A stretch of 32,000 nt of DNA from Candidatus Odinarchaeia archaeon (GCA_029856525.1 JAHQXC010000002.1:12961-44960), one strand, 5' to 3'. Shown: positions 3,233 to 24,693, counted from the stretch's first letter. Notes: generated by a model not told the origin, from the sequence alone. Made by a program: numbers and translations.

Positions 3233-4909
3233 ATGGCTTACATTGAAGGAATAGATAAAGGAATGGTTAATTTAAAAATAGATGACATAGAACATAAGAA
3301 ACCGGCTTCTAAAGATTTTGAACTACGTTTTAAAGGGGTTTCAGTAGGCGTCACTTATAGTTTTAACATATGGTTGCATGAGCAATATCGGTCTATCTAT
3401 GGTGATAAGTATCTCTATGGAGATAGTTTTATTAATTTTAACTCAGGTCCATTCAGCAGCGATAAACTTGAAAAAAAATTAGAGGACCTACTATATTGGA
3501 AAGCGGATAAAATAGACGTTTTAAAAAAAATATCCGGTTCAAATTGGGGGATTTACTGGTCAGGTGTAACAGGGGGGATTGATAGAATTGATAGAATACT
3601 CTTCTCAGAAACGTACCTGAACAGTAACCCGCTTATACATTTTGAACTTCAACCTATCGAGTTAATGAACCCTGTAACTCTTAAAATATATGACACTGAT
3701 TCAAATGAATGGAAGAATTCAAGCAACAATGTTAAAGGTTATATTAGAAGACTTCTAACAATTTACAGATGCGGGTTTATAACGATAACATATTTTTTAA
3801 TTTTAAATTCCGGTAAAAGAGAATGGTTGGAGAGAATCCCGCATTTAACGTTGAAAAATGATTTAACAGTCGACGAGCTGATATTTATTTTAATTAAAAA
3901 ATTAAGCAGCTTCAAGCTTAGAACAGGTGAAAAAACCAATTTAGATCAGCAGGCTACAATCGACTTTATGAAAATACTTGGAAAAATCTATGACTTAGAT
4001 GAGCAGGATGTTAAGGAGACAATCAACCATCTTGCTGATAAAACATCCATCAACTATTATTCTATATGTATATGGGATATAAACTGTAAATGTAAGGAAC
4101 AGCATACAAACGCCGTGGATATTATTAGAAATCATCCTTGGGAGATTTACGGTTTAAGAGGGCCAGACCGACAGTGGATGAATAGAAAAGCAGAGTATAT
4201 AGTCGACTCTATCTCAGACTGGTTTAATCCTTATTCAGATATTGTTTTTAAACCGTTTCCTAGAGTTCATATAGAAGTCACATACCCGCTTATACGGAGG
4301 AGAACGCTTATCTCCATGGGGCCTTTCTCACCTCCTCAAAGACTATGGGAGTTTAGAGTCGTCCAGGAGAAAGTCTTCAGAACCTTCAATCAATTACTCA
4401 GCGAGGAGACATCTAAGCTTTCAAAAACACTTAAAGTAGAAGAGCTGATTGAAACAGTGAAAAACGTAGCTAATATTAGAAGAAGACTTATAGGTGTCTT
4501 AGAAGACTTATACTGGATATCTAGCAGTATCAATCATATACCTGATCGAAATTATTTAAGCTACGCGCAAATCACAGCTGGTTTAAATAATATGAAAAAC
4601 ACGCTATTCGAGAAAATAAACAATTTAGTTGAAATATCTAGAGATGAAACTAATATAACTAATCTCGATGTAGGCTCGAGAATGAGCCTTATAAGAACAT
4701 ATGCTTCCGTTCTAAGCATATTCTTAGCTACTATAATAACTTTAGCCAGCACTTTATCTAATATTTATATTTGGATGCTAGGGCCGAGGCCGGCAACACT
4801 TAGTTTAACAGATCAGATTATGATAATACTGCAGATCTTCGGATTAAACGCCGCCTTCCTAATACCTATCGTGTTAATAGTTTGGAGGATTTTCAAGAAA
4901 TTCAGGTAG
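3233..4909 (+). CDS. Hypothetical membrane protein: large soluble N-terminal region, long amphipathic helices, two C-terminal TM segments (CorA/DUF155-like architecture, tentative)
   Basis: 558 aa ORF with SD-like GAGTGG. C-terminal hydrophobic segments YASVLSIFLATIITLASTLSNIYIWML and IMIILQIFGLNAAFLIPIVLIVW followed by RIFKKFR. Family assignment is by eye only. Confidence 0.75.
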   Translation: MAYIEGIDKGMVNLKIDDIEHKKPASKDFELRFKGVSVGVTYSFNIWLHEQYRSIYGDKYLYGDSFINFNSGPFSSDKLEKKLEDLLYWKADKIDVLKKISGSNWGIYWSGVTGGIDRIDRILFSETYLNSNPLIHFELQPIELMNPVTLKIYDTDSNEWKNSSNNVKGYIRRLLTIYRCGFITITYFLILNSGKREWLERIPHLTLKNDLTVDELIFILIKKLSSFKLRTGEKTNLDQQATIDFMKILGKIYDLDEQDVKETINHLADKTSINYYSICIWDINCKCKEQHTNAVDIIRNHPWEIYGLRGPDRQWMNRKAEYIVDSISDWFNPYSDIVFKPFPRVHIEVTYPLIRRRTLISMGPFSPPQRLWEFRVVQEKVFRTFNQLLSEETSKLSKTLKVEELIETVKNVANIRRRLIGVLEDLYWISSSINHIPDRNYLSYAQITAGLNNMKNTLFEKINNLVEISRDETNITNLDVGSRMSLIRTYASVLSIFLATIITLASTLSNIYIWMLGPRPATLSLTDQIMIILQIFGLNAAFLIPIVLIVWRIFKKFR

Positions 4910-6059
4910 ACGCGGATTCGAAGAAGGCTTGCAATCGTTCAACACCCTCCTTTAAATCCTCGTCAGGAAGCGCATAGCAAATCCTGAAATTATATTCAGA
5001 ACCTTCGCCGAATATTGTTCCAGGTGAAACCGCCACATGCGCTTTATTTAAAAGTTCCATCGCTAAAGTCTCAGAGTTAAGCTTACATCTATCACGTGGA
5101 AATATGTAAAATGCTCCCTGAGGGACAGGTGTTTCTAATCTGGAGATCTTCTTCAAACCTTCTATAATAGTATTCCTTTTTCTCAAAGCTAACCCCACAA
5201 CAGTTTTAACATACTCCTTATATTCAGATAATATGTCTAAACACGCTTTTTGCGCGAATGTGACAGGGGCGGTTACAGTATGCTGCTGTACTATATTCAT
5301 TCTATCAATAATATTTCTAGGCCCCGCAGCGAAACCAACCCGCCAGCCAGTCATAGAGAATACTTTAGAAAAACTATCAGTGAGAATAGTCTTCTCAAAA
5401 CCGTTGCTAATAGCAGCCGGACTGTAATGAACATGACCGTCATACGTGTAAGCCCAGTCGACTTCATCCGAGAGAATATAAAACCCTTTCTCTACAGCTA
5501 AATCTACGATAAACTTTAAATCGGATTTATCTAGCACACCGCCGGTGGGATTATTCGGCGTGTTTAAAACTACTAATTTAGTTTTCCTGGTGACAGCGTT
5601 TTGAAAACGCTCATGGTTAATCTTGTAAAGCGGATCGGTTAAAACCTCTCTAATATTTTTTATACCTAGAAGCATTGGAATAGCTTTAAAACTACTCCAG
5701 AACGGTGTTAAAAGAATAACTTCATCGCCTGGTTTTAGAAGAGATGCGAAAACGCAGTAAGATGAAAACTTCGACCCAGGGGTGACGATTATTTCCTCAG
5801 GATTATAGGAGACACCTCTAGTTTCTTCGAGAAAGAGTTTCAACCCTTCTCTTAACTCGAGAAGACCCTTAGTAGGAGAATACCTATTATACCCTTCTAA
5901 CACAGCTTTACAAGTAAAATTCACAGCGTTTTCAGGCGGATCGAAACACGGCTCAGCTAAGTCAAACCGGATAACCTTAACGTTATCCCTCCTCTCAACA
6001 AGCCTAACCATATCAGTTATAGATACAGGGGAGATTGGAATATCTTTTTTACTCCACAT
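4902..6059 (-). CDS. PLP-dependent aminotransferase class I/II (aspartate/aromatic aminotransferase-like)
   Basis: NTPNNPTGGV, SDEVD, SFSKVFSMTGWRVG (Schiff-base Lys), PQGAFY, VSPGTIFG, FRICYA. Start set at ATG 6059 (MWSKK) behind SD GGAAGGTGG; the ORF track start at 6110 is likely too long. Confidence 0.92.
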   Translation of the reverse strand: MWSKKDIPISPVSITDMVRLVERRDNVKVIRFDLAEPCFDPPENAVNFTCKAVLEGYNRYSPTKGLLELREGLKLFLEETRGVSYNPEEIIVTPGSKFSSYCVFASLLKPGDEVILLTPFWSSFKAIPMLLGIKNIREVLTDPLYKINHERFQNAVTRKTKLVVLNTPNNPTGGVLDKSDLKFIVDLAVEKGFYILSDEVDWAYTYDGHVHYSPAAISNGFEKTILTDSFSKVFSMTGWRVGFAAGPRNIIDRMNIVQQHTVTAPVTFAQKACLDILSEYKEYVKTVVGLALRKRNTIIEGLKKISRLETPVPQGAFYIFPRDRCKLNSETLAMELLNKAHVAVSPGTIFGEGSEYNFRICYALPDEDLKEGVERLQAFFESAST

Positions 6060-6140
6060 TAAACCACCTTCCAATAGTAGAAAATAAAATATAAATAAAT
6101 CTATTCGCAAAATTAATAGAAAAATTATTTTAAAAGGCTG

Positions 6141-7406
6141 ATGAAAATGGGCTCGAAAGAAATATTCGAAGCAGCTTCGAAAAGTATCCTACTAAAAGAT
6201 CCATATGTTAAGAAAATCTGGAATCTTATAAACGATAAAACCTTATTTAATAAATCACCGGATTATCTTAAAGCGCTTAGAAAAAGTCTATTAAGAGAAG
6301 CCTTAGACTTTTTTTCTAGGAGAAGCGAATACTACCAACAGACCTTTGAGAAATTAAATATTAACCCGAAGAATGCGGATTTTACAGATTTAGCGAAGCT
6401 AGCTGTTCCAGCTGATATGCTAAGAGGTGAAGGGCATAAACAGTTCCTGATAAGGGATGTTGAGCAGGGAGGGGAATACTTTACCTCAAGTGGAACCACA
6501 GGTAAAACACCTGTTAAAATATATAGAAGCCCTTTGGATCTGGCTATAATGATTAAAGCTAACACCGATCTATTTGAATATGTTTACGGAGATGTTTTAG
6601 AGCAGGGTAAAGGTATAGCTTTATTCATGGCAGCCCCGGAGTTAAGATATAAATTAAGTTTCGTAGCGTTCGTTGATCTCACACTCGACAATAAAAATAT
6701 TCCATTATTATATGGAATGAATCTTGTTCGAAACAAAGACGGTACAACTGACTGGCAGAGACTTGAGTTAAATAAAGAGAATGTGGTGAAATTTTTGAAA
6801 AGTCGAGAGGAGCCTAAACTGTTTTTCACAGCACCGGCAGGCGTCTATCTTATGGCGGATAAATTCGATAAAATGAACTTCTTAAAAAAGCTAATATACA
6901 GGATAGCCACTACAGCCCCCCCTGTCAACCTAGGAAAAGGGGGGGTGATTGTAACCGGAGGGGGAACTAAAGGGTTTACAAATCTGCCGTCATATGATAA
7001 GATTGTGGAGCTTTCAAGAAAATATTTTAAAGCTAAAAATAAAGCAGGGGAGGAGCACCCAGCACCTTTCATGGATGTGCTAGGGATGACGGAGACTTTA
7101 ACCGCGTTAATAGATCGATTCGGTGTTATGAATAAAATACCACACCCCTTATCCCACGTTTTCCTATTAAAACCTAGTACATTTGAGTTAATAGAAGATG
7201 ATGAAGGGCAGGAAGGCGTGTTAGGTATATTCAACCCGTTTACAACATCATGGCTTGAATTATTCTATCCAGGTGATTTCATGAAAGCTCACAGCTCTAA
7301 TCGATATTACGGTAAAGAATACACTTATGTTAGAAGATTCACCCCTGAAGAGGGCTGGGAGCTTCAAAGAGCATGCGGGGGAACACTAGAAGAGATGATG
7401 AGATAA
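6141..7406 (+). CDS. luxE: LuxE-family acyl-protein synthetase (long-chain fatty acid-protein ligase-like)
   Basis: 421 aa. FTSSGTTG adenylation motif, IVTGGGTKG (LuxE ITGGGWK), DVLGMTE, GVLGIFNP, and C-terminal ELQRACG with Cys at 7374-7376 matching the acylated Cys of LuxE. Start could be ATG 6147. Confidence 0.8.
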   Translation: MKMGSKEIFEAASKSILLKDPYVKKIWNLINDKTLFNKSPDYLKALRKSLLREALDFFSRRSEYYQQTFEKLNINPKNADFTDLAKLAVPADMLRGEGHKQFLIRDVEQGGEYFTSSGTTGKTPVKIYRSPLDLAIMIKANTDLFEYVYGDVLEQGKGIALFMAAPELRYKLSFVAFVDLTLDNKNIPLLYGMNLVRNKDGTTDWQRLELNKENVVKFLKSREEPKLFFTAPAGVYLMADKFDKMNFLKKLIYRIATTAPPVNLGKGGVIVTGGGTKGFTNLPSYDKIVELSRKYFKAKNKAGEEHPAPFMDVLGMTETLTALIDRFGVMNKIPHPLSHVFLLKPSTFELIEDDEGQEGVLGIFNPFTTSWLELFYPGDFMKAHSSNRYYGKEYTYVRRFTPEEGWELQRACGGTLEEMMR

Positions 7407-7422
7407 AACAGAGGCTTAGAAG

Positions 7423-8892
7423 ATGAAGTTAACTCCTTTAGCACCTATGAGCATAAGAGATTTTATTAGAAAAACAGTAGGAGACATAGAGGTATTAGAG
7501 CTTAGCGAAAAAAGTTTAGATGAAATCTTAAAAGAATTTAAATCGATTCAATCCTCTTTAGCAAAAACACCTATAGAAGAAAGGATTAAAATATTCGACA
7601 AGCTCGGTTTAATTTGGAGAAGAAAATTAGATAACGGTGAACTTGAAAACTTGAAGAAAACGCTATCAGAATTGACAGGTTATAGTGAACACCTCATAGA
7701 GTTAGAGTTTAATCTAGTCTCCTATCTGTTAAACGAAGCTAATATTAGGCGTAATCTGGAAGCAGCTTTCAATAATGGAGTGGAAGGCCTTAGCAAATTC
7801 ATTAAAATCGCTGAAAACGAGTACTTTAAGTATATGCCGGCTGGGCCTGTGTTCATAATAAGTTCAGGTAACTCTCTTATACCCCCACTTATCCCAACCA
7901 CTTTATCGCTGGTAACAGGAAATTTAACAATACTTAAACCATCTATTTCAAATTATCCCGGTGTTATTGAAGTTTACAGAAATCTAGAGGAGATTGCGAA
8001 AAATGATAAGACAGCGGAGACCATTCTCTCAGCGATAGTCATCAGCTATTTCACACATGACAGCCCGGCACTCAAGCATCTTTTAACTAAAACCCCATTA
8101 GGAGTTGTTAATTTCTGGGGAGCTGAACCTGCTAGAACTGTGATAGCTAAACTTGTAGCAGAAAACCAATATCATCCACGCCTTATAGTGAACGGCCCTT
8201 TAACAGGTTTAGCGATAATAGACTCAGAGTCAGCTAACCTAGCAGCTAAAGAACTGGCGTTAAACATGATCTTATACGATCAGCAACTTTGCAGTTCACC
8301 TACGCAAGCAGTTTTTATAGGTAAATTAGAAGAAGCGGTTTCATTCGCTGAAAGTGTAGGGCGATACCTAGACCTTATCGGCGATAAAATTAAGATGAAA
8401 ACTAAAGACTCTGCGCTTTACCTTCTGCAAACCGCTAGACGAGCATTACAGTTTAAGGGAGTTAAAATACTGTTCTCAAATAAACACGACAACCCTTGGA
8501 CTATAATAGTATCAAAAGAGAAAAGTAGTTTACAATCGTTATCAGAAAGCCTACCAGAGTTTAATATCTATAATAGGAGAAGATTCATAGAAATAATAGT
8601 TACGGAAAAATTAGATGACGCGCTTAAAATAATAGAATCAGTTCGTTTAAATCCTGCTTTCAAAGAAGTAGATAAAGTTCAATCAATAGGGTTAGCGTTA
8701 TCCGAGTCTAATAAAAATAAAATAATAGAGGAACTGCCTAATACGGGAATATATAGAATCACTACTCTAGCAGATATGTATATGAGAAGCGCTATAGAAC
8801 CATACGATGGAGCGTCGATACCATTACTTTTCACTTACACAGTTTATAGAAGAGATGTTAAACATCCATATGAAATAGCCCAATTATTTTAG
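7423..8892 (+). CDS. luxC: LuxC-family acyl-CoA/acyl-protein reductase (ALDH fold)
   Basis: 489 aa. IISSGN, LKPS, NFWGAEPA, and YDQQLCSSP with the catalytic Cys at codon 8290-8292 (Cys290), matching the LuxC DQxACxSP motif. Starts 16 nt after luxE. Confidence 0.85.
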   Translation: MKLTPLAPMSIRDFIRKTVGDIEVLELSEKSLDEILKEFKSIQSSLAKTPIEERIKIFDKLGLIWRRKLDNGELENLKKTLSELTGYSEHLIELEFNLVSYLLNEANIRRNLEAAFNNGVEGLSKFIKIAENEYFKYMPAGPVFIISSGNSLIPPLIPTTLSLVTGNLTILKPSISNYPGVIEVYRNLEEIAKNDKTAETILSAIVISYFTHDSPALKHLLTKTPLGVVNFWGAEPARTVIAKLVAENQYHPRLIVNGPLTGLAIIDSESANLAAKELALNMILYDQQLCSSPTQAVFIGKLEEAVSFAESVGRYLDLIGDKIKMKTKDSALYLLQTARRALQFKGVKILFSNKHDNPWTIIVSKEKSSLQSLSESLPEFNIYNRRRFIEIIVTEKLDDALKIIESVRLNPAFKEVDKVQSIGLALSESNKNKIIEELPNTGIYRITTLADMYMRSAIEPYDGASIPLLFTYTVYRRDVKHPYEIAQLF

Positions 8893-8906
8893 GAAGTGAG
8901 TTTAAA

Positions 8907-9902
8907 ATGAAAATCCTTGTAACAGGGGCCTCAGGTTTTTTAGGAGGCCACTTAGTTGAAACTTTAGCGAATAAAGGATATAAGATAATAGCTATGGTAA
9001 GAGAGACCAGTAATATAGAATTAATAAAAGACTTAGTATTCGAATTCAGATATGCTGATTTAAGTGAACCTGAAACTATCGTCGAAGCTGTTAAAGGCGT
9101 TGACGTTATAATCCATTTAGCAGCCTACTATACTTTTCACGGTTCCAGCAAACTATATGAAAAAATTAACGTTGAAGGAACAAGATATTTAGCTGAAGCT
9201 GCTTTAAAAAATAAAATTCAACACTTCATCTACTGTAGTACAACCGAAGTTATAGGCCCTGTTAAAAATCCCCCGGGAGATGAAAACACTGAACCTAACC
9301 CTACTTATGAATACGGGAGATCGAAACTAAAAGCGGAGAAGATAATTAAAGAATATGGTTTAAAAGGCGTAAATTATACGATTATACGACCCTCAGGAAT
9401 ATATGGGCCTAGAAACGTTAACGACGTATCATACTGGACAATCACATCTTTCGCTAAAAACTCTATAGGCACACGATTTATTATAGGTAGCGGTGAAAAC
9501 CTAGTTCAGTTCGTTCATGTAAAAGATGTTGTTGAAGGATTCACTTTAGCATTAGAAAAAAGAGACATATCAAGTAGACAAACATATATTATCAGCGAGG
9601 ATAAAGCTTACACATATAAGCAAGTATATGAAATTCTAGCAGATTTAACCGGTAGAAAACCGCCAAGCAAGCATATACCTAAAACATTAGCTAAAATTTT
9701 AATAGCGCCTATACAAGGAGTAAATAGAATACTCGGTAAAGAGAATTTTTTATATCATATTAGCACCGTTGACTCTGTCTGCTCTGATAGAGCCTATAGT
9801 ATTGAGAAAGCTAAACGAGAATTAGGTTATACTCCCAGATATGATTTGAGAACAGGGTTGAAGGAAACAATCGAATGGTATACTAAAAATGGATATATCT
9901 AG
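8907..9902 (+). CDS. Extended SDR, NAD(P)-dependent epimerase/dehydratase / 3-beta-HSD-like oxidoreductase
   Basis: 331 aa. TGASGFLGG Rossmann motif, HLAA, NVEGT, YCST, YGRSK (YxxxK), IRPSGIYGP, FVHVKDV. VRETS after beta-2 suggests NADP(H). SD GGAAGTGA; 14 nt after luxC. Confidence 0.88.
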   Translation: MKILVTGASGFLGGHLVETLANKGYKIIAMVRETSNIELIKDLVFEFRYADLSEPETIVEAVKGVDVIIHLAAYYTFHGSSKLYEKINVEGTRYLAEAALKNKIQHFIYCSTTEVIGPVKNPPGDENTEPNPTYEYGRSKLKAEKIIKEYGLKGVNYTIIRPSGIYGPRNVNDVSYWTITSFAKNSIGTRFIIGSGENLVQFVHVKDVVEGFTLALEKRDISSRQTYIISEDKAYTYKQVYEILADLTGRKPPSKHIPKTLAKILIAPIQGVNRILGKENFLYHISTVDSVCSDRAYSIEKAKRELGYTPRYDLRTGLKETIEWYTKNGYI

Positions 9903-9903
9903 T

Positions 9904-11436
9904 TTAGAGTAAATAGATTACATTCGATAAAGCTAATGCGACGGTTGACAGCAATAGCATATTAGAGATTATTTGGCTAAACCAGCTCATAGAAACGTGA
10001 GAGAAAATTGTGCTAACAACCGTAGATACAGATATCAGAATCACCATTAAATTTAATCCGAGTAAGAGAAAAGAAACATTTTGTTGAAGAATAAGAGCGA
10101 CTATAAATAATTGAACTAGAAGAGAAGAAACTGTGATGAGAATTTGAAGAGTACAAGATAATATAGTAGATAACCATCCTGAACCTAGTGTGCGCTTAAT
10201 TAAACCTCTGAAAAACAGCTCATAAAAGAAGAACACGCAGAAATACGCTGGGAGATATAGAAGTAAAAAAATCAATTTAACAGAAGCTGTTGAGAAAGTC
10301 GAAGCTGTATTAAAGCCGACGCTGGTATAAAATAATATTATAAGAGAGATTCCGACGGTAAACCCTATTATAAGGTTTTGAATAAAATTTTCTCCAAGGT
10401 TATTTTTAGATTCTCGTATAAATGCGCGCCAATCAAGCCGTCTTCTAAAAATAATTAAAGCTAAAGCCCCTAAGCTGATAGAGTTTCCTAAAAATAGAGA
10501 AGTAATAAAGTTTGTGAAAAGCAGAGGGCTTATAATGAAAAAAACAGGGGATAATAATAAAGTTAAAGCAGCCCCACAGAAGCTAGCGATTATGAAACCT
10601 GAGCTGAGGTATAGAAGAGTTTCACACTTAATTTGCAGCTGTCTGACATCTGTTTCAACACGTTTTTTAGTATTAATATTTTCCAATAAAATATGAGCGG
10701 CGGGCAGAATGATCATTAAACCGGCGATTAGAGTTGAGAAAACTGAAGCCCCTATTAAATCAGAGTTAATAGTGGAAGATTCCTCTATCCCTGAAACAGC
10801 CCTGGTTACCCATTTAACAACCTCATTTATAATAACAGGTTTATATAAAATATTAAGATGATCGGAAGAATCATCTATGAAAAGCTTTTTTTCAGATCCA
10901 CCTGCGAAGTATGTAATACCCGGTTCCCCTGTATTATTAATAGAGTTATAAAATGCGTTGATAACAGCTTGATTATCAATTATGAAATCTCCTTCAGAGA
11001 TGATGAGAAGAAGGTTCCTAGGAGTAGTAAGATTAACAGAGTTCGAGGAGATAGCTGGGGCTATTCCGATAGTTGCAATAGGTTGAAGAATTTTACTCAT
11101 GTTAACCGCTACACTCCCACCCATACTGTGACCTATAAAAATAAGCTGACTTATATTACCTATTTTGTGAAAGATAAGCGAATCTAATACGGCTTGAATA
11201 TCAATGTCGAAGCGGTTTATATCACTCATGCTTCCCCCGCTATCGCCATGCCCTCTCAGATCAATTAACACGCTAATAAAATTTCTTTCAGCTAAAGCAA
11301 GCCCTATCATCTTCATCATTTTTCTGTTACCTGAAAATCCGTGAATTAGAAATATGAGAGGGGCTTCATTGCTAGTAGAAGGTTTTTTAATAATATCGAA
11401 TACTATTGGAACACCGTCATCGGTTACGGCGTGCAT
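9904..11436 (-). CDS. Alpha/beta-fold hydrolase fused to a multi-pass membrane domain; the true N-terminus probably extends to about 11538
   Basis: IHGFSG, IDLRGHGDS, GHSMGG nucleophile elbow (11116-11133), candidate triad Asp (SEGD) and His (DHLNI). The C-terminal half has several hydrophobic helices and YELFFRG. The frame stays open 42 codons upstream of ATG 11436. Confidence 0.85.
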   Translation of the reverse strand: MHAVTDDGVPIVFDIIKKPSTSNEAPLIFLIHGFSGNRKMMKMIGLALAERNFISVLIDLRGHGDSGGSMSDINRFDIDIQAVLDSLIFHKIGNISQLIFIGHSMGGSVAVNMSKILQPIATIGIAPAISSNSVNLTTPRNLLLIISEGDFIIDNQAVINAFYNSINNTGEPGITYFAGGSEKKLFIDDSSDHLNILYKPVIINEVVKWVTRAVSGIEESSTINSDLIGASVFSTLIAGLMIILPAAHILLENINTKKRVETDVRQLQIKCETLLYLSSGFIIASFCGAALTLLLSPVFFIISPLLFTNFITSLFLGNSISLGALALIIFRRRLDWRAFIRESKNNLGENFIQNLIIGFTVGISLIILFYTSVGFNTASTFSTASVKLIFLLLYLPAYFCVFFFYELFFRGLIKRTLGSGWLSTILSCTLQILITVSSLLVQLFIVALILQQNVSFLLLGLNLMVILISVSTVVSTIFSHVSMSWFSQIISNMLLLSTVALALSNVIYLL

Positions 11437-11635: not shown

Positions 11636-12229
11636 TTATTCTTTCTTCTGCCATGGACCTAGCGGTAATACTGTTCTATTATACATTCCATTTAAGATTA
11701 TTCCAGCGGCTGTATACATTGCACTGGCACCGCATACTATGCCCTCTAAACCTGTGATTGTTAAGACCAGTGTGCTTCCAGTGAGATATATTACAGTGTT
11801 TGAAATAGCGAGCAAGTAGAATAGAATAGCTAAGCTACCTAGCACAAATGATAATGCTTTAGTAGTTTTAAATGAGCCTACAAAGAATATTGTGGTGAAA
11901 ACACCCCAAACAAGCATTGTCCAAGCAAGGTCTATAACTGTAATAGTCGGGAATAACCCCATTGAACTAAGAGATAAAGCGGTAGCTAAACCTATCCAGA
12001 ATAAACCGTAAGAGCAGAAAGCTGTTCCACCGAATGTGTTACCTTTTCTAAGATCGATTATACCAGCTATTACTTGAGCTAAACCACCGTAAAAGAATCC
12101 GTAGCCGATAGCCATCGTATTTGCAACACCTAATAAACCTAGGTTATGTAAATTTAGTAATACAGTCGTTAAACCGAAGCCGAATAATCCTAGCGGACTA
12201 GGATCAGCCCATGTTTGTTTTTCAGACAT
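11636..12229 (-). CDS. satP: Acetate/succinate uptake transporter, SatP (GPR1/FUN34/YaaH) family
   Basis: ADPSPLGLFGFGLTT signature, FFYGGLAQ, GNTFGGTAFCSYGLFW; about six TM helices. Start set at ATG 12229 behind SD GGAGGT (197 aa); the ORF track start at 12310 is likely too long. Confidence 0.92.
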   Translation of the reverse strand: MSEKQTWADPSPLGLFGFGLTTVLLNLHNLGLLGVANTMAIGYGFFYGGLAQVIAGIIDLRKGNTFGGTAFCSYGLFWIGLATALSLSSMGLFPTITVIDLAWTMLVWGVFTTIFFVGSFKTTKALSFVLGSLAILFYLLAISNTVIYLTGSTLVLTITGLEGIVCGASAMYTAAGIILNGMYNRTVLPLGPWQKKE

Positions 12230-12463
12230 TAATTTAACCTCCGAATAGTGGTTAAATATTGTCAGTTTAGCGTTAAATATATAATGTTTACGATTATTTT
12301 CGCTCAGCACAGTAAAGCATATGAATTTAAGCGTATGAGACTAGCAGTGGTGAAATTAGTTCCAGCGGTTTATCAGCCAGTTAAAGTTGAGGATATTTCC
12401 TCTTACTATAGATTTAGTAGGTTTACTGGTTAACTATGTCAGGTTCTAGTTTGAATCTTAGTG

Positions 12464-12483: not shown

Positions 12484-12528
12484 AGTCTGAAATTAATAAT
12501 TATTTAGATTATTTTGAAGGTGAATTAT

Positions 12529-13800
12529 TTGGAGAAAACCTCGAATATAAGCGGATTTTATAAATTGAATATCGCTCAGAGAAGGCGTGTGGTTAAAGAA
12601 TTTGCAGGTTTAACCGATGAAGATTTAGAGCTTCTTGGAGATATCAACGATCCGTTAACTAGTATAGCTGATAAAATGATTGAAAACGTTATAGGAACCA
12701 CTAGGATTCCTTTAGGGATAGCGGTTAACTTTCTTATAAACGGGAAAGATTATCTTATTCCCATGGCTATAGAGGAGCCTTCAGTGGTTGCGGCGGCTTC
12801 TAACGCGGCTAAAATCGCTAGAATAAGAGGCGGATTCACAGCCACCAGCACCGATCCTATCATGATAGGTCAAATCCAGGTACTCGACGTTAAAGATCCT
12901 CATGCTAAAAAATTTGAAATTTTAAAACATAAAACAGAGCTTCTCCAAATAGCTAATGAACAGGACCCTGTTCTAAACAGATTCGGTGGAGGCGCTAAAG
13001 ACATAGTTGTGAGAGTGATTGAATCTATAAGAGGACCTATGCTTATCATACACCTACTTGTAGATACAAGGGATGCTATGGGAGCGAATGCAGTTAATAC
13101 TATGTGTGAAGCGCTCACTGATAAAGTAGCTCAGATAACAGGGGGGAGAGTTGGTCTACGGATTATTTCAAATCTTGCAGTTTACCGGTTGTGCAGAGCT
13201 AAAGCGATATTCGATAAAGAAGCTTTAGGCGGAGAAGATGTGGTTGATAAAATATTAGACGCATATGCTTTCGCTGAAGCTGATATATTCAGATGCGCTA
13301 CGCATAATAAAGGTATTATGAACGGGATAACAGCGTTAATGTTGGCGACTTGTAATGATACTAGGGCTGTAGAGGCGGGGGCGCATGCTTACGCTGCTTT
13401 AAACGGCGGGTATAAACCTCTAACACGATGGGAGAAAGATAGCGAAGGGAATTTGGTAGGTTCAATAGAGTTACCTATGGCTGTAGGTCTGGTGGGAGGC
13501 GCGACTAAAGTTCATCCGATAGCGCAGCTAGCTATAAAAATTTTAAATGTAAAAACAGCTAACGAGTTAGGGGAGGTTGCAGCTTCACTGGGTTTAGCTC
13601 AAAACTTCGCGGCGATTAGAGCTTTAGCCACCGAGGGTATTCAGAAAGGACATATGCGGTTACATGCCCGGAATATAGCGATCACAGCCGGGGCTAGCGA
13701 GGATATCGTGGATAAAGTGGTTGAGGAGCTTGTTAAAATCGGTAAGATTAGAGTGGATATAGCTGAGAAGATTATTAAAGAGTTGCAACAATCTAAATAG
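12529..13800 (+). CDS. mvaA: HMG-CoA reductase, class II (bacterial/degradative type)
   Basis: IENVIG, PMAIEEPSVVAAAS, DAMGAN, THNKGIMNG, GIQKGHMRLHAR. Start set at TTG 12529, 5 nt after SD GAAGGTGA; the ORF track uses TTG 12514. Confidence 0.95.
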   Translation: MEKTSNISGFYKLNIAQRRRVVKEFAGLTDEDLELLGDINDPLTSIADKMIENVIGTTRIPLGIAVNFLINGKDYLIPMAIEEPSVVAAASNAAKIARIRGGFTATSTDPIMIGQIQVLDVKDPHAKKFEILKHKTELLQIANEQDPVLNRFGGGAKDIVVRVIESIRGPMLIIHLLVDTRDAMGANAVNTMCEALTDKVAQITGGRVGLRIISNLAVYRLCRAKAIFDKEALGGEDVVDKILDAYAFAEADIFRCATHNKGIMNGITALMLATCNDTRAVEAGAHAYAALNGGYKPLTRWEKDSEGNLVGSIELPMAVGLVGGATKVHPIAQLAIKILNVKTANELGEVAASLGLAQNFAAIRALATEGIQKGHMRLHARNIAITAGASEDIVDKVVEELVKIGKIRVDIAEKIIKELQQSK

Positions 13801-14854
13801 AGTCTAAGAGTTCACGCCAAGATACATGATCGTAAACCATTTTCTTTGTTAAATTTATCCTAGAAGTGTCTGATGGTTTAATCTTACCCGTAAGGCCCTC
13901 GAGAATTTTAACAGTGGAATATGTGTCGTGAGGAACCATTATCACAGTAATGTTTTTTTCACTAGCTTTAACTAACACTTGCTCTGAAGGCCTCAAGTTC
14001 CCGGTTAACACTATAACAGAGGCGTTAGTCTCCACAGCTGCGGATATTATATCAGCTCTATCCCCGCCTGTTATAATCGCATTATTCCCGCTTCTTCTAA
14101 AATATCTTAGAGACGACTCTGTTTGCATGGCGCCTATGAAAATGTTTTCGATAACGCGATTGATATCGCCTTTAACAAGCACTTCTCCTTCCAACAGCTC
14201 TAAGAGTTCTCGAACTGTAGGTGAGGAAATCTCATAGCTTCTAGGTATTACCCCCCAGACTTTAACACCATGCCTGTTAAGTAGCTCGGTGTACTCGCCT
14301 TCAGCTTTCTCCATCATATATGGTGGGATCTGATTTAAAACAGCGCCTACTAGTTGAACGCCACGCATATCTAGAATACTTTTATAGAACAGTATCTTCT
14401 CAATAGAGCTGTCGCTTACACCCCCTGAGATAGCTAGAACCTTTGAGTTTAAAAGTTCAGCTATATCTATATTATTTAAATTAAATGCCGTCATGGTTTC
14501 AGGTGAAACACCGCCTTCAACTATTATTATATCAGAGTTCTCCGATAGTTTACCGTATTGTTTCAAGATCATACTCCTTAAATCTGCAACATCTCGTTTA
14601 GCGTAAACACTTAAATAGTTAGGTTCAATTAAAATAGGTGTTAACTCATCTAGGGTAAAAGGAAGTTTTAAAGTCTCTTTCATTAAGAGAACATCAGGAT
14701 CTACAGCTCCTTCTGTAACAGATGTTTGAGGTCGACCGACAGGACGGAAATAGCTTACTTTAAAACCGTTCTCCACTAAGACCTGGGATAAACCTAGTAT
14801 GAAAGCTGTTTTACCTGAAAACCCTTCCCATGAAACTACAAATAAGGATTTCAT
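13793..14854 (-). CDS. Phosphotransacetylase N-terminal-domain family protein (BioD-like/AAA_26 plus DRTGG), lacking the catalytic PTA domain
   Basis: EGFSGKT P-loop-like motif, YFRPVG, IIIVEG, IITGGDRADII. Start set at ATG 14854 behind SD AGGTGA (353 aa). Confidence 0.88.
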   Translation of the reverse strand: MKSLFVVSWEGFSGKTAFILGLSQVLVENGFKVSYFRPVGRPQTSVTEGAVDPDVLLMKETLKLPFTLDELTPILIEPNYLSVYAKRDVADLRSMILKQYGKLSENSDIIIVEGGVSPETMTAFNLNNIDIAELLNSKVLAISGGVSDSSIEKILFYKSILDMRGVQLVGAVLNQIPPYMMEKAEGEYTELLNRHGVKVWGVIPRSYEISSPTVRELLELLEGEVLVKGDINRVIENIFIGAMQTESSLRYFRRSGNNAIITGGDRADIISAAVETNASVIVLTGNLRPSEQVLVKASEKNITVIMVPHDTYSTVKILEGLTGKIKPSDTSRINLTKKMVYDHVSWRELLDSI

Positions 14855-14874
14855 ACTATCACCTATAATTTTTT

Positions 14875-16989
14875 TCAAATATATAAAGACATTTTAACAT
14901 CTACAGCGATACAGCCCTCACCTTTATTATAAACGAATAAAGGATTAACATCCAACTCTGATATAACTGGAAACTCTTCTACTAATTGTGAGACGGCTAG
15001 AATAGTTTTAATAACCGCATCTATATCAGCAGGCTGCTCTCCTCTAACACCTTTAAGTAGATTATACACTTTAGTCTCTTTTATCATTTCTTCAGCGTCG
15101 TTAAAAGTAACTGGAACTATTCTAAAAGCAACATCTCTTAGAAAGTTAACATATACTCCTCCAAGCCCGAACATTAGTAGATGACCGAATTGAAGATCCT
15201 TATTAACCCCGATTATAACCTCTTTACCTTTCTCAACATACTCGTATACTTCAACCCCGTATATTCTAGCATTAGGGAAAAGCTTATGCGCGTTAGCGAC
15301 CATGCCTATGAAGATTTTTCTCACGTCTTCTTCATTCTTCACGTTTAAAGCAACACCGCCTACATCAGATTTGTGAATTATATCAGGGGAGGCTATTTTC
15401 AAAGTAACAGGGTAACCGATCTCGGCAGCAGCCTCACAGGCTTCTTCACTATTGGAAGCTAGATGAACTTTAGGAGTTTTAACATTGTAAAAACTTAATA
15501 TTTCGCAGGCTTCACTGGATAGCAGTGTTCTTCGATTTTCACTTAAAACTCTCTTAATTATTTCACGAATAGGTTCCTTATCCACTGGAATCTTAAATTT
15601 TCTATGAGACATCTTCTTTTCACGAATAAGCTTATATCTTGTTAAAGCCGCTATGCTTTCAACCGCGTCCTCTGGGAAACTGAAGACAGGTATATTATTC
15701 TCGGATAAAATTCGTTTAGCTTCAGCTACCTGCTCACCGCCTATTAGGGAAAAAGCAACTGGTTTATCTATCATACTGGTAAGCTTAACTAATTCTAAAA
15801 CTGTTTCAGTTGGTTTAGTTGTAGCCTGAGGTGTTAAAATAATAATTAGAGAGCTGACGTTATCGTCATCTTTAAGCGTCTCTAAAGCCTTATAATATCT
15901 TTCAGGCTGAGCGTCGCCTAGGATGTCTACGGGATTATAAATAGACGCGTTTGGTGGCAGCCGTTCTCTGAGATTATTCAAGGTCTCATTTTTAAGCTGA
16001 GCTAGTTTTAAACCGTGTTTTTCACACGCATCCGTCGCTATAATTCCAGGGCCGCCTGCGTTGGTTAAAATACAAATAGAGTTATCTTTCGGAAGCGGTT
16101 GAGTTGAGAATACTTTCGCATAGTTGAATAAATCGGATATAGTTTCAACCTGTAAGGCTCCGAATTGTTTAAACACAGTTTCATAAGCTATCCTGCTTCC
16201 TGCAAGAGACCCTGTATGAGAGGCAGCTGCCCTCTGCCCTGCCGTTGATGAACCTGACTTTAAAACTAGCACAGGTTTTATTTTAACAGTTTTTTTAAGA
16301 GATTTAATGAATTTACCACCGTCTTTAACATCTTCAATATATAATAATATAACCTTCGTGTTATTATCAGCGGCTAAGGCGTTGATGAAATCTGATTCAT
16401 CTAAGTCTGCTTTATTACCTAAACTTATCACTTTACTAAAGCCTATTCTATTCTTAAAAGACCAGTCTAGTATCGCTGTTCCCAGAGCTCCGGATTGAGA
16501 GATGAACGCTATATTCCCTTTCAGAGGCATCTGAGCTGCGAATGAAGCGTTTAAAGGTGTGAAAGTGTCTATAACTCCAAGGCAGTTAGGTCCAAGTAAG
16601 TTCATCTTATATTTTTTACATATATCTTTAAGCGCTCTCTCTCTTTCAGCGCCCTCTTTTCCAGTCTCCTTAAACCCAGCGGATATCACTACGAGATTTT
16701 TAACCTTACTAGCACCACATTCTTCAGCTACTTTAACAACGCTCTCAGCCGGTATCACTATTACAGCTAAGTCTATTTCATCGTTTATCTCACTTATATT
16801 AGAATACACTTTTAAGCCGAGAATCTCTTGATAATTAGGGTTCACAGGGTAAACTCTCCCCATGTAACCGTATTTTATTACATTCTCTAAAATATTATAG
16901 CCTAGTTTACCTGGCTTAGAAGAAGCCCCTATTATAGAAACAGATTTAGGGTTAAATAACGTTGACAGGAGAATGTCAGGTTTATGCAT
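14875..16989 (-). CDS. acdAB: Acetate-CoA ligase (ADP-forming), fused alpha-beta subunits
   Basis: 704 aa. IIGASSKPGKLG, LGPNCLG, SQSGALG, SLGNKAD, ASHTGSLAG (phosphorylated His), TNAGGPG, NPVDILGD, and ATP-grasp part GYPVTLKI...HKSDVGGV...ELDVNPL. The actual acyl substrate is not determinable from sequence. Confidence 0.93.
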   Translation of the reverse strand: MHKPDILLSTLFNPKSVSIIGASSKPGKLGYNILENVIKYGYMGRVYPVNPNYQEILGLKVYSNISEINDEIDLAVIVIPAESVVKVAEECGASKVKNLVVISAGFKETGKEGAERERALKDICKKYKMNLLGPNCLGVIDTFTPLNASFAAQMPLKGNIAFISQSGALGTAILDWSFKNRIGFSKVISLGNKADLDESDFINALAADNNTKVILLYIEDVKDGGKFIKSLKKTVKIKPVLVLKSGSSTAGQRAAASHTGSLAGSRIAYETVFKQFGALQVETISDLFNYAKVFSTQPLPKDNSICILTNAGGPGIIATDACEKHGLKLAQLKNETLNNLRERLPPNASIYNPVDILGDAQPERYYKALETLKDDDNVSSLIIILTPQATTKPTETVLELVKLTSMIDKPVAFSLIGGEQVAEAKRILSENNIPVFSFPEDAVESIAALTRYKLIREKKMSHRKFKIPVDKEPIREIIKRVLSENRRTLLSSEACEILSFYNVKTPKVHLASNSEEACEAAAEIGYPVTLKIASPDIIHKSDVGGVALNVKNEEDVRKIFIGMVANAHKLFPNARIYGVEVYEYVEKGKEVIIGVNKDLQFGHLLMFGLGGVYVNFLRDVAFRIVPVTFNDAEEMIKETKVYNLLKGVRGEQPADIDAVIKTILAVSQLVEEFPVISELDVNPLFVYNKGEGCIAVDVKMSLYI

Positions 16990-20395: not shown

Positions 20396-21901
20396 GTGAA
20401 TAAATCAAATTACATCCATTTTTTAAATCTTACCGTTTTAACATTGATATCTTTAATAATTCGTGTAGCTTATAACCCTTTAAGAGCTACGGGAAACCTT
20501 TACCCTGATGAAGCATATTATCTAGTAAATTCGAGAAACATTACCGAGATAGCTTCTAATCCTATTCTTCTTTTTAGAGCGACATCTTTACTAACCTATT
20601 TCTTAATCTATTATTTATTCGGTTTTTCACTAGATATTTTCATTTGGGTAAACTACTTGTACGGGGTTTTATTAACTATAGCCGTATATCTGATAGTTTT
20701 AGATATCACGCGAAAACAGCTGACAGCGTTGTTTAGCAGTGTTTTTATAACATTAAGTAGTTTTTTTATTCATGCAAGTCAAAGTAATCTAATAGATTTA
20801 CCGATCGCTTTCTGGCTGCTCATATTATATTATTTTTTATATAAAACACATTACGAGAAAAAATATATTCTACCTTCAATTATAACAATGGTAGTCTGCA
20901 TATTTACAAAGGAAACAGCTTTTTACGCTATTCCAATCCTAATCTTCATCAATATACTTTTTATTAAAAATTATAGAATCCGTATAATTGGTTTAATTTT
21001 ATCAGCTATAATCTTGTTTACTGCTGTATTTTTAATAGGCGGCTATATCGAAATCCGCGGCTACTCTAATTTATTCTCAATAGAGAATGCTAAACGATTC
21101 ATATACAACTTAGGTTGCATTCTTACAACAAATTTTTATATATTATTTAACATATTCACATGGACGTATGAAAAGTATCTTACCATAATAGTTTGCGTTC
21201 TCTTTATCTTTATAGTAGTTAAGGCTTGGTATTATAAGCGAGCAAGTATTTACGAGATAAGCCTACTCTTTTTCGCTGTTCTATTTTATTTAACGCTATT
21301 ATATGTTAACCCTGCTAAGGTTGCTTTAAATATCGGTTGGAGATATCTGCTACCGTCGATGCTAAGTTTACTACTATTATTTAGCGTGTTAATCACTGAT
21401 TCAATTTATTTAGTAAAAGAAAACATATCAAATATGGTAGGGGATAGTATAAGCCTAATTGTTAAAAATAAGAAAGAGATGGGGAAGATTATTTTAACGA
21501 TTTTATTAATAGCGATGATAATCTCACTACCAGTCTATTATGCGTTCTCAGAGCTTAATTTCTATAATAGATACGTAAAAGTAACGATGTATGAATATGA
21601 TAGTTTAAGGAGAGCTTCCTTAATCGTAGCGGATTTGAAACAAGATAATGAGAGCACGATACTGGCGCCATTCATATATCAGGTGAGCATATGGACTGAT
21701 TTCAAATTTGAGAAATATTATTCTTTCCCGAAAAATAGTGTAGATCTGCACACCTTGCTCAACGAGACAATATTCGATTATATTATAGTATCAGACTGGT
21801 GGGTTTACCATCCATTTGAACTTATTCAGGAAAAATATTTGCTACTCTACTCTATTACAGACGCAGCGAATCACACTACTAAAATATATAAATCAATTTA
21901 A
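20396..21901 (+). CDS. GT-C fold glycosyltransferase, GT39/ArnT/PMT_2-like
   Basis: 501 aa polytopic membrane protein. YPDEAYY acidic motif after TM1, NLIDLP, FTKE, WRYLLP, short C-terminal soluble domain. GTG start with SD GAGGGG. Confidence 0.75.
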   Translation: MNKSNYIHFLNLTVLTLISLIIRVAYNPLRATGNLYPDEAYYLVNSRNITEIASNPILLFRATSLLTYFLIYYLFGFSLDIFIWVNYLYGVLLTIAVYLIVLDITRKQLTALFSSVFITLSSFFIHASQSNLIDLPIAFWLLILYYFLYKTHYEKKYILPSIITMVVCIFTKETAFYAIPILIFINILFIKNYRIRIIGLILSAIILFTAVFLIGGYIEIRGYSNLFSIENAKRFIYNLGCILTTNFYILFNIFTWTYEKYLTIIVCVLFIFIVVKAWYYKRASIYEISLLFFAVLFYLTLLYVNPAKVALNIGWRYLLPSMLSLLLLFSVLITDSIYLVKENISNMVGDSISLIVKNKKEMGKIILTILLIAMIISLPVYYAFSELNFYNRYVKVTMYEYDSLRRASLIVADLKQDNESTILAPFIYQVSIWTDFKFEKYYSFPKNSVDLHTLLNETIFDYIIVSDWWVYHPFELIQEKYLLLYSITDAANHTTKIYKSI

Positions 21902-22429
21902 ATTATGAGTCGAATTATGTTTACTAAGTATTAATTTAACAAGAGTTGTGAACGCTTCCTCGATGTTTTCACCGGTTTTAGCGCTTGTTTCAAAGTATGG
22001 GTAACCTGTTTCCTTAGTTATTTTTTCAATACTGGATGGTTTAACTTCAATAGATATTTTTAAGTCTTTTTTATTACCTAAGATAGTACAGGGTATATCT
22101 GGTTTAGAGTATTCTTTAACTCTTAGAATCCAAGCTTTAAGGTTTTCAAATGTTTTAATTCTAGTTAAATCGAAAACAGCTATACAACCGTCTGATCCTT
22201 TAAAATAATTTTTATGCATGATCTCCCAGCCTTTCTGGCCTGCAATATCCCAGATAGATAAATCCACGACCCTACCGTTTATATTTAACTGCTTATAGTA
22301 TATGTCAACTCCTAAAGTGGGAAGATACTCTGTGCTAAATTTCTCTTTTATAAAACCTCTAACAAGGCTTGTTTTCCCAACAGCCGCGTCGCCTACTATA
22401 ACTATTTTAAATGTAAACTTACCCGCCAT
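21893..22429 (-). CDS. Rab-like small GTPase (Ras superfamily, eukaryotic signature protein)
   Basis: 178 aa. G1 GDAAVGKT, G2 PTLGVD, G3 WDIAGQ, YFKGSDG, VFDLT, G4 NKKD, G5 ETSAKTG. No C-terminal cysteine motif. Confidence 0.93.
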   Translation of the reverse strand: MAGKFTFKIVIVGDAAVGKTSLVRGFIKEKFSTEYLPTLGVDIYYKQLNINGRVVDLSIWDIAGQKGWEIMHKNYFKGSDGCIAVFDLTRIKTFENLKAWILRVKEYSKPDIPCTILGNKKDLKISIEVKPSSIEKITKETGYPYFETSAKTGENIEEAFTTLVKLILSKHNSTHNLN

Positions 22430-22542: not shown

Positions 22543-23154
22543 GTGCAAGAGGACTGGGAGACTCAATGGAATAGAGCTTGGTCTAATGTACCTTTATGGT
22601 GGGTTATACTCTGGCGTGGTTATAAAAAACTGCTTAAAGAAGTTGATTTGAAATCGCCTAAGATAATAGAGCTTGGTTGCGGTAGTGGTAGAACTTCACT
22701 AGCATTAGCTAAGTTATTTAACGGCGAGGTTACATTAGTTGATAACTCTAAGGCTGCGATACGGAAGGCTAAGCAGACTTTTTATAACCAGAATGTTAAC
22801 ACCAAGTTTATTATAGGAGACCTGTTTTCCCTAAAACTAGAAGGAGGCTATGATCTAGTCCACAGCGAGGGGTTAATCGAACATTTTAAAGAGAGACAGC
22901 TTAACGAGCTTGTTAAACTGCACTCCTCGCTCTGCAACCCGGAAGGATATGTGATTATTTTCGCTCCAACTCTTTCTAAAACCTATAAGATTTGGAGGTT
23001 TATACAGGAAAGACTAGGAGTATGGTATTATGGAGATGAGAAGCCGATGTTAGAGGGGGAGCTTAAAACTTTATGTGAGCGAAACGGTCTTAAAGTTTTA
23101 AAAACAGTTAAAACACCCTTCCAGGTAGGTGTTTTATGTAAACCTGTAGGATAG
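22543..23154 (+). CDS. Class I SAM-dependent methyltransferase
   Basis: 203 aa. IIELGCGSG (motif I), LVDNS, GDLF, YDLVHSEGLIEHF. GTG start with SD GGTGGT. Confidence 0.9.
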   Translation: MQEDWETQWNRAWSNVPLWWVILWRGYKKLLKEVDLKSPKIIELGCGSGRTSLALAKLFNGEVTLVDNSKAAIRKAKQTFYNQNVNTKFIIGDLFSLKLEGGYDLVHSEGLIEHFKERQLNELVKLHSSLCNPEGYVIIFAPTLSKTYKIWRFIQERLGVWYYGDEKPMLEGELKTLCERNGLKVLKTVKTPFQVGVLCKPVG

Positions 23155-23169
23155 GCTAACGTTTTTAAG

Positions 23170-24678: not shown

Positions 24679-24693
24679 AAACGGCTGATTAAC

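Follow-up and report, generated by a model that had tools for sequence, protein, structure and literature searches.

A LuxE-like, LuxC-like and short-chain reductase gene trio in Odinarchaeum: a candidate archaeal route from carboxylic acids to alcohols

The closest described counterpart of the genes studied here is the LuxC-LuxE fatty acid reductase of luminous bacteria, the structure of which is available for Photobacterium phosphoreum (PDB 7XC6; Tian et al. 2022, PMC9157457). The hallmark of LuxE is the absence of a C-terminal subdomain, the place of which is taken by a flexible motif of about 20 residues carrying the acyl-accepting Cys364; Lys238 and Arg355 form the catalytic pair, Arg355 being the residue of adenylation and thioesterification, and the catalytic cysteine of LuxC is Cys296 in the numbering of that paper (PMC9157457). 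Here, we analyse a set of three genes encoding a LuxE-like protein, a LuxC-like protein and a short-chain dehydrogenase/reductase (SDR) of the extended type, located in a stretch of 32,000 nucleotides from Candidatus Odinarchaeia archaeon (GCA_029856525.1, JAHQXC010000002.1:12961-44960), which is referred to as the window in its full length. The host genome (1.32 Mb, 127 contigs) is 93% complete. We consider it fairly probable that this trio is an operon for the ATP- and NADPH-driven conversion of a carboxylic acid, through an aldehyde, into a primary alcohol, all catalytic steps, their direction and the cofactors being predicted.

The archaeal genes share with LuxC-LuxE of luminous bacteria an adenylating enzyme that lacks the C-terminal subdomain of the ANL superfamily and ends in a cysteine-bearing tail, as well as a reductase of the aldehyde dehydrogenase (ALDH) superfamily with one essential cysteine; the Arg-Arg pair and both cysteines align, and the genes are adjacent in both cases. 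In contrast, the sequence similarity is very low, the gene order in Archaea is E-C and not C...E, and the archaeal operon contains a dedicated NADPH-type SDR while lacking LuxD and LuxAB. The residue that follows the catalytic cysteine is a serine in the archaeal LuxC-like proteins, whereas it is the functionally important Phe297 in LuxC of the lux systems, and the hosts of the trio are mostly anaerobic archaea rather than luminous bacteria. Our comparison suggests that the trio works like the LuxC-LuxE fatty acid reductase and belongs to the same broad families, in which it would represent a distinct and very divergent archaeal subfamily. A similar succession of reactions, in which an acid activated by ATP is converted into a thioester, an aldehyde and an alcohol, is known from carboxylic acid reductases (CARs) and fatty acyl-coenzyme A (CoA)/acyl carrier protein reductases (FAR, NAD_binding_4). 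Unlike the trio, CARs have a carrier domain with a phosphopantetheine arm as well as an R domain of the SDR type; in the trio, the arm would be the cysteine tail of the enzyme itself, and the first reductase is of the ALDH type. In the literature searched, we found no paper that links LuxC or LuxE with the archaeal lineages discussed below or that describes the cassette.

The three genes and their products

The trio consists of three co-oriented open reading frames (ORFs) on the + strand, separated by short spacers. Its features are as follows (positions are those of the window):

6141-7406, + strand: gene 1 (421 amino acids), LuxE-like acyl-protein synthetase gene; PaaK-like ANL adenylating domain with a short cysteine-bearing tail
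6486-6503, + strand: codons of SSGTTG (residues 116-121), ANL phosphate-binding loop; aligns with FTSSGTSG of Photobacterium LuxE
7332-7337, + strand: codons of Arg398-Arg399, counterpart of Arg354/Arg355 of LuxE; invariant, VRR aligned on VRR of 7xc6_E
7374-7376, + strand: codon of Cys412, which is proposed to accept the acyl group; within QRACGG of the flexible C-terminal tail
7407-7422, + strand: spacer between genes 1 and 2 (16 nt) with GAGG, similar to a ribosome-binding (Shine-Dalgarno) site
7423-8892, + strand: gene 2 (489 amino acids), LuxC-like acyl-protein thioester reductase gene of the ALDH superfamily; PF05893
8290-8292, + strand: codon of Cys290, predicted catalytic, acyl-accepting cysteine in YDQQLCSSPT; aligns with the cysteine of YDQQACFS in Photobacterium LuxC
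8893-8906, + strand: spacer between genes 2 and 3 (14 nt), GGAAGTGAG, purine-rich and Shine-Dalgarno-like
8907-9902, + strand: gene 3 (331 amino acids), extended SDR gene, NADPH-type, proposed aldehyde reductase; PF01370
9000-9002, + strand: codon of Arg32, directly after strand beta-2; arginine in 62 of 63 sequences, with a gap in the remaining one
9237-9239, + strand: codon of Ser111 of the SDR triad; invariant in 63 sequences
9312-9326, + strand: codons of Tyr136-Lys140 (YGRSK), SDR catalytic pair; invariant in 63 sequences

Translation of gene 1 probably begins at the second ATG (position 6147), since an identical database protein has 419 amino acids and the homologues begin there.

A first-pass annotation of this DNA had described three co-oriented genes with gaps of 16 and 14 nt and Shine-Dalgarno sites, a FTSSGTTG motif and a C-terminal cysteine within RACG in the LuxE-like protein, DQxxCSSP in the LuxC-like protein, and intact GxxGxxG and YxxxK motifs in the SDR. 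The ORF coordinates and the purine-rich spacers bear out the first of these statements, and all of the motifs were found in the translations: FTSSGTTG at residues 114-121 and RACG at 410-413 of gene 1, where Cys412 lies nine residues from the C-terminus, DQQLCSSP at 286-293 of gene 2, with Cys290 within it, and GASGFLG at 7-13 and YGRSK at 136-140 of gene 3. The same annotation had counted a failure to match the LuxE and LuxC hidden Markov models among the outcomes that would speak against it. For the LuxC family the match is clear, gene 2 reaching 113 bits (E 2e-32) against PF05893, the cut-off of which is 21. Gene 1, formally, does fail the model of the LuxE family: it has no Pfam match at all, and PF04443 is absent even at E <= 10 in both protein and six-frame genome searches.

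The relation of gene 1 to LuxE is nevertheless traceable by other means. Comparison with NCBIfam gave faint acyl-CoA ligase matches only, and a direct search of PDB sequences with gene 1 found nothing, but two homologues with 66-72% identity to it carry a precomputed PF04443 match. A profile built from 18 members of the family has LuxE (7xc6_E) as its best PDB match (E 1e-3, 21 bits), over N- and C-terminal stretches, and among 1.84 billion representative proteins searched, the family profile reached two proteins that pass PF04443 at 144 bits, with nearly full-length alignments (E 2e-9 and 6e-4). The family has few members and stands apart: 71 representatives were obtained at E <= 1e-3, with Pfam-LuxE proteins at its fringe. 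Residues S116, S117, G118 and T119 of the phosphate-binding loop are invariant among the 18 homologues of gene 1, as are Q409, R410, A411, C412, G413 and G414 of the tail in the gene 1 homologues. The distance of the tail cysteine from the C-terminus, nine residues, is the same for Cys412 of gene 1 and for Cys364 of the 373-residue LuxE.

The AlphaFold2 model of gene 1 has a predicted local distance difference test (pLDDT) score of 81; its tail, residues 411-421, is disordered (pLDDT < 50). The best structural matches to the model are short ANL ligases of the PaaK family, including PaaK1/2, 2-hydroxyisobutyryl-CoA ligase, BT_0428 and NatL2/AjiA1/ClxA, with Z scores of 20-24, a root-mean-square deviation of about 3.2 A over about 320 residues and 11-15% identity. 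These enzymes share with gene 1 an N-terminal helical microdomain and the SSGTTGK loop. Their N-domains give the best matches (Z 23-24), the first ~330 of their ~430 residues covering residues ~31-403 of the gene 1 model. Beyond this region, the PaaK-family enzymes have a C-terminal subdomain of about 100 residues and transfer the acyl group to CoA or an amine, whereas the model of gene 1 contains only a tail of 18 residues that carries the cysteine, with no counterpart of the ANL C-terminal subdomain. LuxE itself (7xc6_E) was not among the structure-search matches listed (Foldseek, VIA), which is no evidence for a different fold. In view of the profile link to LuxE and of the tail architecture without a C-terminal subdomain, gene 1 is a very divergent LuxE-type acyl-protein synthetase that is missed by the Pfam model; its self-acylation is predicted. 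The failure against PF04443 reflects divergence and not a different fold or architecture, and the link to LuxE, as judged from the sequence, is weak but specific.

The assignment of gene 2 has the additional support of its only significant match among PDB sequences, which is Photobacterium LuxC (7xc6_A, E 8e-6). Residues Y285 and Q287 through T294, which surround and include the predicted catalytic cysteine, are invariant in 69 sequences. Gene 2 is nonetheless a member of a distant paralogous subfamily and not an orthologue of LuxC from the lux systems, because it scores 46 bits against the NCBIfam LuxC equivalog NF052251, the cut-off of which is 750. The cleft residues described for the bacterial enzyme (PMC9157457) were mapped onto the LuxC alignment and gave no usable signal of substrate polarity, the cleft being partially aligned and its positions varying within the family.

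Gene 3 matches PF01370 with 165 bits, and its AlphaFold2 model has a pLDDT of 94. Among 63 sequences, G7, G10, G13, C110, S111, T113, Y136 and K140 are invariant. A basic residue after strand beta-2 of SDRs marks users of NADP(H), whereas the NAD+-retaining epimerases and dehydratases have an aspartate there. Arg32 of gene 3 replaces the acidic residue of the nucleotide-sugar enzymes, and the scores of gene 3 against SDR equivalogs lie far below their cut-offs. The best NCBIfam matches are HpnA, SdmB and OleD, all of them below cut-off; for the hopanoid-associated sugar epimerase HpnA (TIGR03466), the score is 179 bits with a cut-off of 367.65. Weak similarity to thioester-reductase and male-sterility domains was also detected (85 bits). 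By both sequence and fold, the closest solved relative is the NADPH-dependent extended SDR Gox2253 of Gluconobacter oxydans (3WJ7; E 1e-35, template modelling (TM) score 0.83), although a full-length identity of 30% does not fix the substrate of gene 3. Yin et al. are said to have found in 2014 that Gox2253 reduces C7-C10 aliphatic aldehydes. A preprint calls it an aldehyde reductase (bioRxiv 10.64898/2026.10.06.757028). Unlike gene 3, Gox2253 is a stand-alone bacterial enzyme with no LuxE or LuxC partners. Gene 3 is accordingly predicted to be an NADPH-type extended SDR of the aldehyde/keto reductase type.

Conservation, variants and origin of the trio

When prokaryotic species were scanned, each represented by one genome, 80 loci related to the trio were recovered. 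They are labelled as Odinarchaeota, Methanomethylicia/Methanosuratincola, hot-spring TACK lineages including Brockarchaeota, Bathyarchaeota, Thermofilaceae, Zestosphaera/Sulfolobales, Archaeoglobales, Methanofastidiosia and many Methanomassiliicoccales. Several of the carriers have been cultured or enriched, namely Thermofilum pendens, Methanosuratincola and Zestosphaera. Outside Odinarchaeum, identity to the proteins of the window is 55-75% for the LuxE-like protein, 35-54% for the LuxC-like protein and 48-69% for the SDR. When only those loci are counted whose contig leaves room for the neighbouring genes (72 for LuxC, 69 for the trio), LuxC directly follows the LuxE-like gene in 68 of 72, and the complete trio, with unchanged order, is present in 63 of 69. 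Such an arrangement is much more frequent than expected by chance, and the SDR is a conserved neighbour across many archaeal lineages, a point on which the first-pass annotation had called for a check. The median gaps in the homologous loci are 2 nt between the LuxE-like gene and LuxC and -4 nt between LuxC and the SDR gene; this overlap of start and stop suggests translational coupling.

Variants of the cassette were also found. A natural fusion of the LuxE-like protein with LuxC, 884 amino acids in length, is present in one metagenome contig. In divergent subfamilies with readable, annotated neighbourhoods (Theionarchaea, P0125, P0142), the E-C pair is kept and the third partner changes. The surroundings of the fusion and a Theionarchaea-like cluster (L086 8001-10655; L087 1637-9648) contain no SDR, and carry a carbamoyltransferase and radical-SAM (S-adenosylmethionine) enzymes; the gene content of the Theionarchaea-like cluster is a carbamoyltransferase, two unknown/radical-SAM proteins, a radical-SAM/SPASM protein, the LuxE-like protein and LuxC. 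One divergent E-C pair has FIST and V4R neighbours. Next to another lies a convergent gene, on the opposite strand, for a Zn-dependent alcohol dehydrogenase, and an SDR gene is missing. In a few genomes, the LuxE-like gene has neither LuxC nor an SDR gene adjacent to it (L061/L090 6001-7290, L021, L043, L060), for example between genes for a GH57 glycosidase and DUF58/MoxR proteins.

Among 301 sampled genomes of the phylum to which the window belongs (70 genera), gene 1 was found only in the four genomes that represent its own genus. Maximum-likelihood analysis places the Odinarchaeum sequences in one compact clade (support 100). The group that encloses this clade (SH-aLRT 91) contains Methanomethylicia, hot-spring TACK lineages and one Archaeoglobales sequence; Methanomassiliicoccales are found closer to the long and uncertain outgroup. 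In two related Odinarchaeum genomes (L005, L006), the trio has the same flanking aminotransferase and HMG-CoA reductase genes as in the window, and the G+C content of the trio region, 0.36, is typical for the window. The restriction to one genus, the nested position of its clade, the shared flanks and the typical G+C content together point to a single, old lateral acquisition of the trio by the genus. The phylogeny that had been suggested as a check for horizontal transfer and the distribution across Asgard archaea therefore both indicate transfer, and with respect to Asgard biology the trio is to be regarded as an accessory set gained in this way and not as an ancestral trait.

The proposed reaction and competing explanations

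In the pathway that we favour, the LuxE-like enzyme would adenylate a free carboxylic acid by means of its SSGTTG loop and Arg398/Arg399, and the acyl group would then move onto its own Cys412, carried by a disordered tail of 18 residues in place of the usual ANL C-terminal subdomain. The tail would bring the thioester into the LuxC-like partner for transfer to Cys290, where reduction by NADPH would release an aldehyde, and the extended SDR, with Arg32 for NADPH and Ser111/Tyr136/Lys140, would reduce this aldehyde to the alcohol. Neither free CoA nor a carrier protein would be needed. The suggestion of the first-pass annotation that the locus encodes an acid reductase dependent on ATP and NADPH, with the SDR acting on the aldehyde, gains support in that the invariant Cys412, Cys290 and the NADPH-type SDR all fit it. 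If the prediction is correct, acyl hand-over on the enzyme's own cysteine tail, known from bioluminescence, is widely used outside light production, together with an aldehyde reductase of its own.

Several observations weigh against this interpretation. Gene 1 fails the Pfam LuxE model and is linked to LuxE by weak profile scores such as the 21 bits to 7xc6_E, and gene 2 remains far below the LuxC equivalog cut-off. Judged by fold, the SDR resembles nucleotide-sugar epimerases and dehydratases (TM 0.77-0.80) no less than reductases, so that fold alone does not settle its reaction and its terminal position in the pathway is assumed. Among the 69 loci, six lack the complete trio, two being E-C pairs without an adjacent SDR gene and four a LuxE-like gene alone. 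Finally, when all ORFs of the 80 loci were clustered and 11 annotated neighbourhoods examined, the neighbours were found to differ by lineage and gave no clue to the substrate.

The trio is accompanied by UbiA and a radical-SAM gene in Methanomassiliicoccales, by ArsR, thioredoxin, glutaredoxin and ferredoxin-thioredoxin-reductase genes and a divergent ABC-2 exporter in Methanomethylicia, by a major facilitator superfamily transporter in Sulfolobales, by an M20 peptidase in Thermofilum, and by an aminotransferase, an alpha/beta hydrolase and HMG-CoA reductase in Odinarchaeum. Genes for ABC-type ATPases lie near 21 of the 80 loci, which is about the level of chance for so common a family. The neighbourhoods of a Pseudonocardia protein and of one Gram-negative family member provided no functional hint. 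In Methanosuratincola (L089 4944-10666), a co-oriented run consists of an ArsR-type regulator, two thioredoxin-like genes, the trio, a glutaredoxin and a ferredoxin:thioredoxin-reductase/rubredoxin fusion, with the ABC-2 exporter divergent upstream; no other lineage showed this thiol-redox theme. As to the substrate, we lean towards a hydrophobic acid, fatty or isoprenoid, or an acid of the aryl- or heteroaryl-acetic type.

In a different division of labour, gene 1 would encode a normal acyl-CoA ligase of the PaaK-like kind and the product of gene 2 would reduce acyl-CoA, a free CoA thioester passing between them. The structures closest to gene 1 (PaaK1/2, 2-hydroxyisobutyryl-CoA ligase, BT_0428) are indeed those of CoA ligases, several databases label its homologues 'phenylacetate-CoA ligase' and the Pfam LuxC family is titled acyl-CoA reductase. 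However, the model of gene 1 lacks the subdomain of about 100 residues that ANL ligases use for thioester formation (PMC9157457), Cys412 and the QRACGG motif are invariant across phyla and would be superfluous for a CoA ligase, and the natural E::C fusion exists, so that we find a CoA-dependent version quite unlikely. It is also unlikely, in our opinion, that the pathway stops at the aldehyde or passes it on, for example to the aminotransferase encoded at 4902-6110, while the SDR acts elsewhere, either on another group (3-hydroxy/3-keto, as in 3beta-HSD, OleD and SdmB) or on a nucleotide sugar. Such a role of the SDR would agree with its sub-cut-off matches to HpnA, SdmB and OleD and with its fold matches, most of which are sugar-nucleotide enzymes, and a class I/II aminotransferase gene is divergently adjacent to the trio in Odinarchaeum genomes. 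Against it stand the invariance of Arg32 where the NAD+-retaining epimerases and dehydratases have aspartate, the nearest solved relative, an aldehyde reductase, the restriction of the aminotransferase neighbour to Odinarchaeum, and the divergent E-C pair in which a Zn-dependent alcohol dehydrogenase gene is adjacent and no SDR gene is present.

The trio could, alternatively, salvage cofactor fragments by re-reducing an oxidised piece of a vitamin, a carboxylic acid, to its alcohol. The main candidate is thiamine, both halves of which are primary alcohols: 4-methylthiazole-5-acetic acid would yield hydroxyethylthiazole, and the pyrimidine carboxylic acid would yield hydroxymethylpyrimidine (HMP). 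A heteroaryl-acetic acid would suit a PaaK-like pocket, the genomes that carry the trio are small (1.0-3.0 Mb), and the 93%-complete host genome contains ThiC (624 bits), ThiD and ThiN, whereas Thi4, ThiG, ThiM and ThiE were not found in it, the source of thiazole in this genome therefore being unexplained. Neither Thi4 nor ThiM is present in at least 20 other trio-bearing genomes, which come from Methanomethylicia and hot-spring TACK lineages. On the other hand, no thiamine pyrophosphate (TPP) riboswitch was found in the genome, nor by Rfam in the window and seven loci, nor by a crude motif screen of the 80 loci, and no thiamine gene lies beside the trio in any neighbourhood examined. Utilisation of the product would require the thiazole kinase ThiM, which was detected in only 10 of 50 genomes with the trio and not in this one, and Thi4 occurs alongside the trio in 20 of the 50, without a complementary pattern. 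Thiamine salvage is thus not supported for the archaeal trio, and cofactor-fragment salvage in general appears very improbable. We give practically no credit to the idea that the genes supply aldehyde to a luciferase or are the decayed remnant of such a system, for which a family resemblance to LuxC and LuxE is the only argument. The three genes are intact and strongly conserved, and they are carried mostly by lineages known as anaerobes. The first-pass annotation had noted that luxA, luxB and luxD are missing from the window; a Pfam scan of all ORFs of at least 110 amino acids confirmed that no protein of the luciferase or LuxD family is encoded there. A genome-wide search for luxAB was likewise negative, the three PF00296 matches in the genome being Mer-like F420-dependent oxidoreductases (luciferase-like monooxygenase (LLM) family), and PF02273 (LuxD) has no match in the genome. 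Since this genome is 93% complete, the absence of LuxAB and LuxD from the host is considered probable.

Returning to the acid-to-alcohol pathway, a bolder form of it would see the trio as a dedicated, laterally mobile archaeal pathway that acts on a metabolite relevant to Archaea and handled by no known enzyme. We regard this as doubtful. In one version, an isoprenoid or other lipid-derived acid would be recycled to the alcohol for ether lipids; in another, an oxidised cofactor fragment would be re-reduced in auxotrophic lineages with small genomes. If true, this would be a new salvage route common to Methanomassiliicoccales, Methanomethylicia, Thermofilaceae, relatives of Sulfolobales, Bathyarchaeia and Odinarchaeum. 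The identity of the substrate would fill a gap in the metabolic map of Archaea, and the enzymes could supply thermostable, CoA-independent catalysts for the conversion of acids to alcohols.

Other genes of the window

The divergent class I/II aminotransferase gene at 4902-6110 lies next to the trio. On the other side of the trio, a gene on the - strand (9904-11436) is convergent with the SDR gene and ends 1 nt from its stop; its 510-amino-acid product has an alpha/beta-hydrolase domain confined to residues ~20-170, the other ~340 residues matching no family, and it is kept in one of the two related Odinarchaeum loci. The HMG-CoA reductase encoded at 12514-13800 (+) belongs to class II, the NAD-type 'degradative' enzymes (TIGR00532, 512 bits, versus 58 bits for the NADPH class), and is found beside the trio in two other Odinarchaeum genomes with 89-93% identity. 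Genes related to acetate are located at 11636-12310 (-) and 13793-16989 (-) and code for an AceTr/SatP acetate transporter, a DRTGG/AAA_26 protein and an ADP-forming acetyl-CoA synthetase; the last of these is a fused protein of 704 amino acids.

Four ORFs have no Pfam family: 3233-4909 (+), 20396-21901 (+), 24694-26364 (+) and 26372-27271 (-), with 558, 501, 556 and 299 amino acids, respectively. The first of them has no NCBIfam match either and is 88% conserved in a sister genome. The third, of 556 amino acids, is part of a co-oriented group at 22543-26364 (+), together with a SAM methyltransferase and a B12-binding radical-SAM enzyme (502 amino acids). Near the beginning of the window, a LarB-like gene (17-784, -; AIR carboxylase domain) and a LarC-like gene (854-2116, +; nickel insertion protein, 330 bits) form a divergent pair, which points to synthesis of the nickel-pincer nucleotide cofactor. 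At 21893-22429 (-) lies the gene for a Ras-family small GTPase (PF00071, 164 bits); this eukaryote-like signature protein fits an Asgard archaeon.

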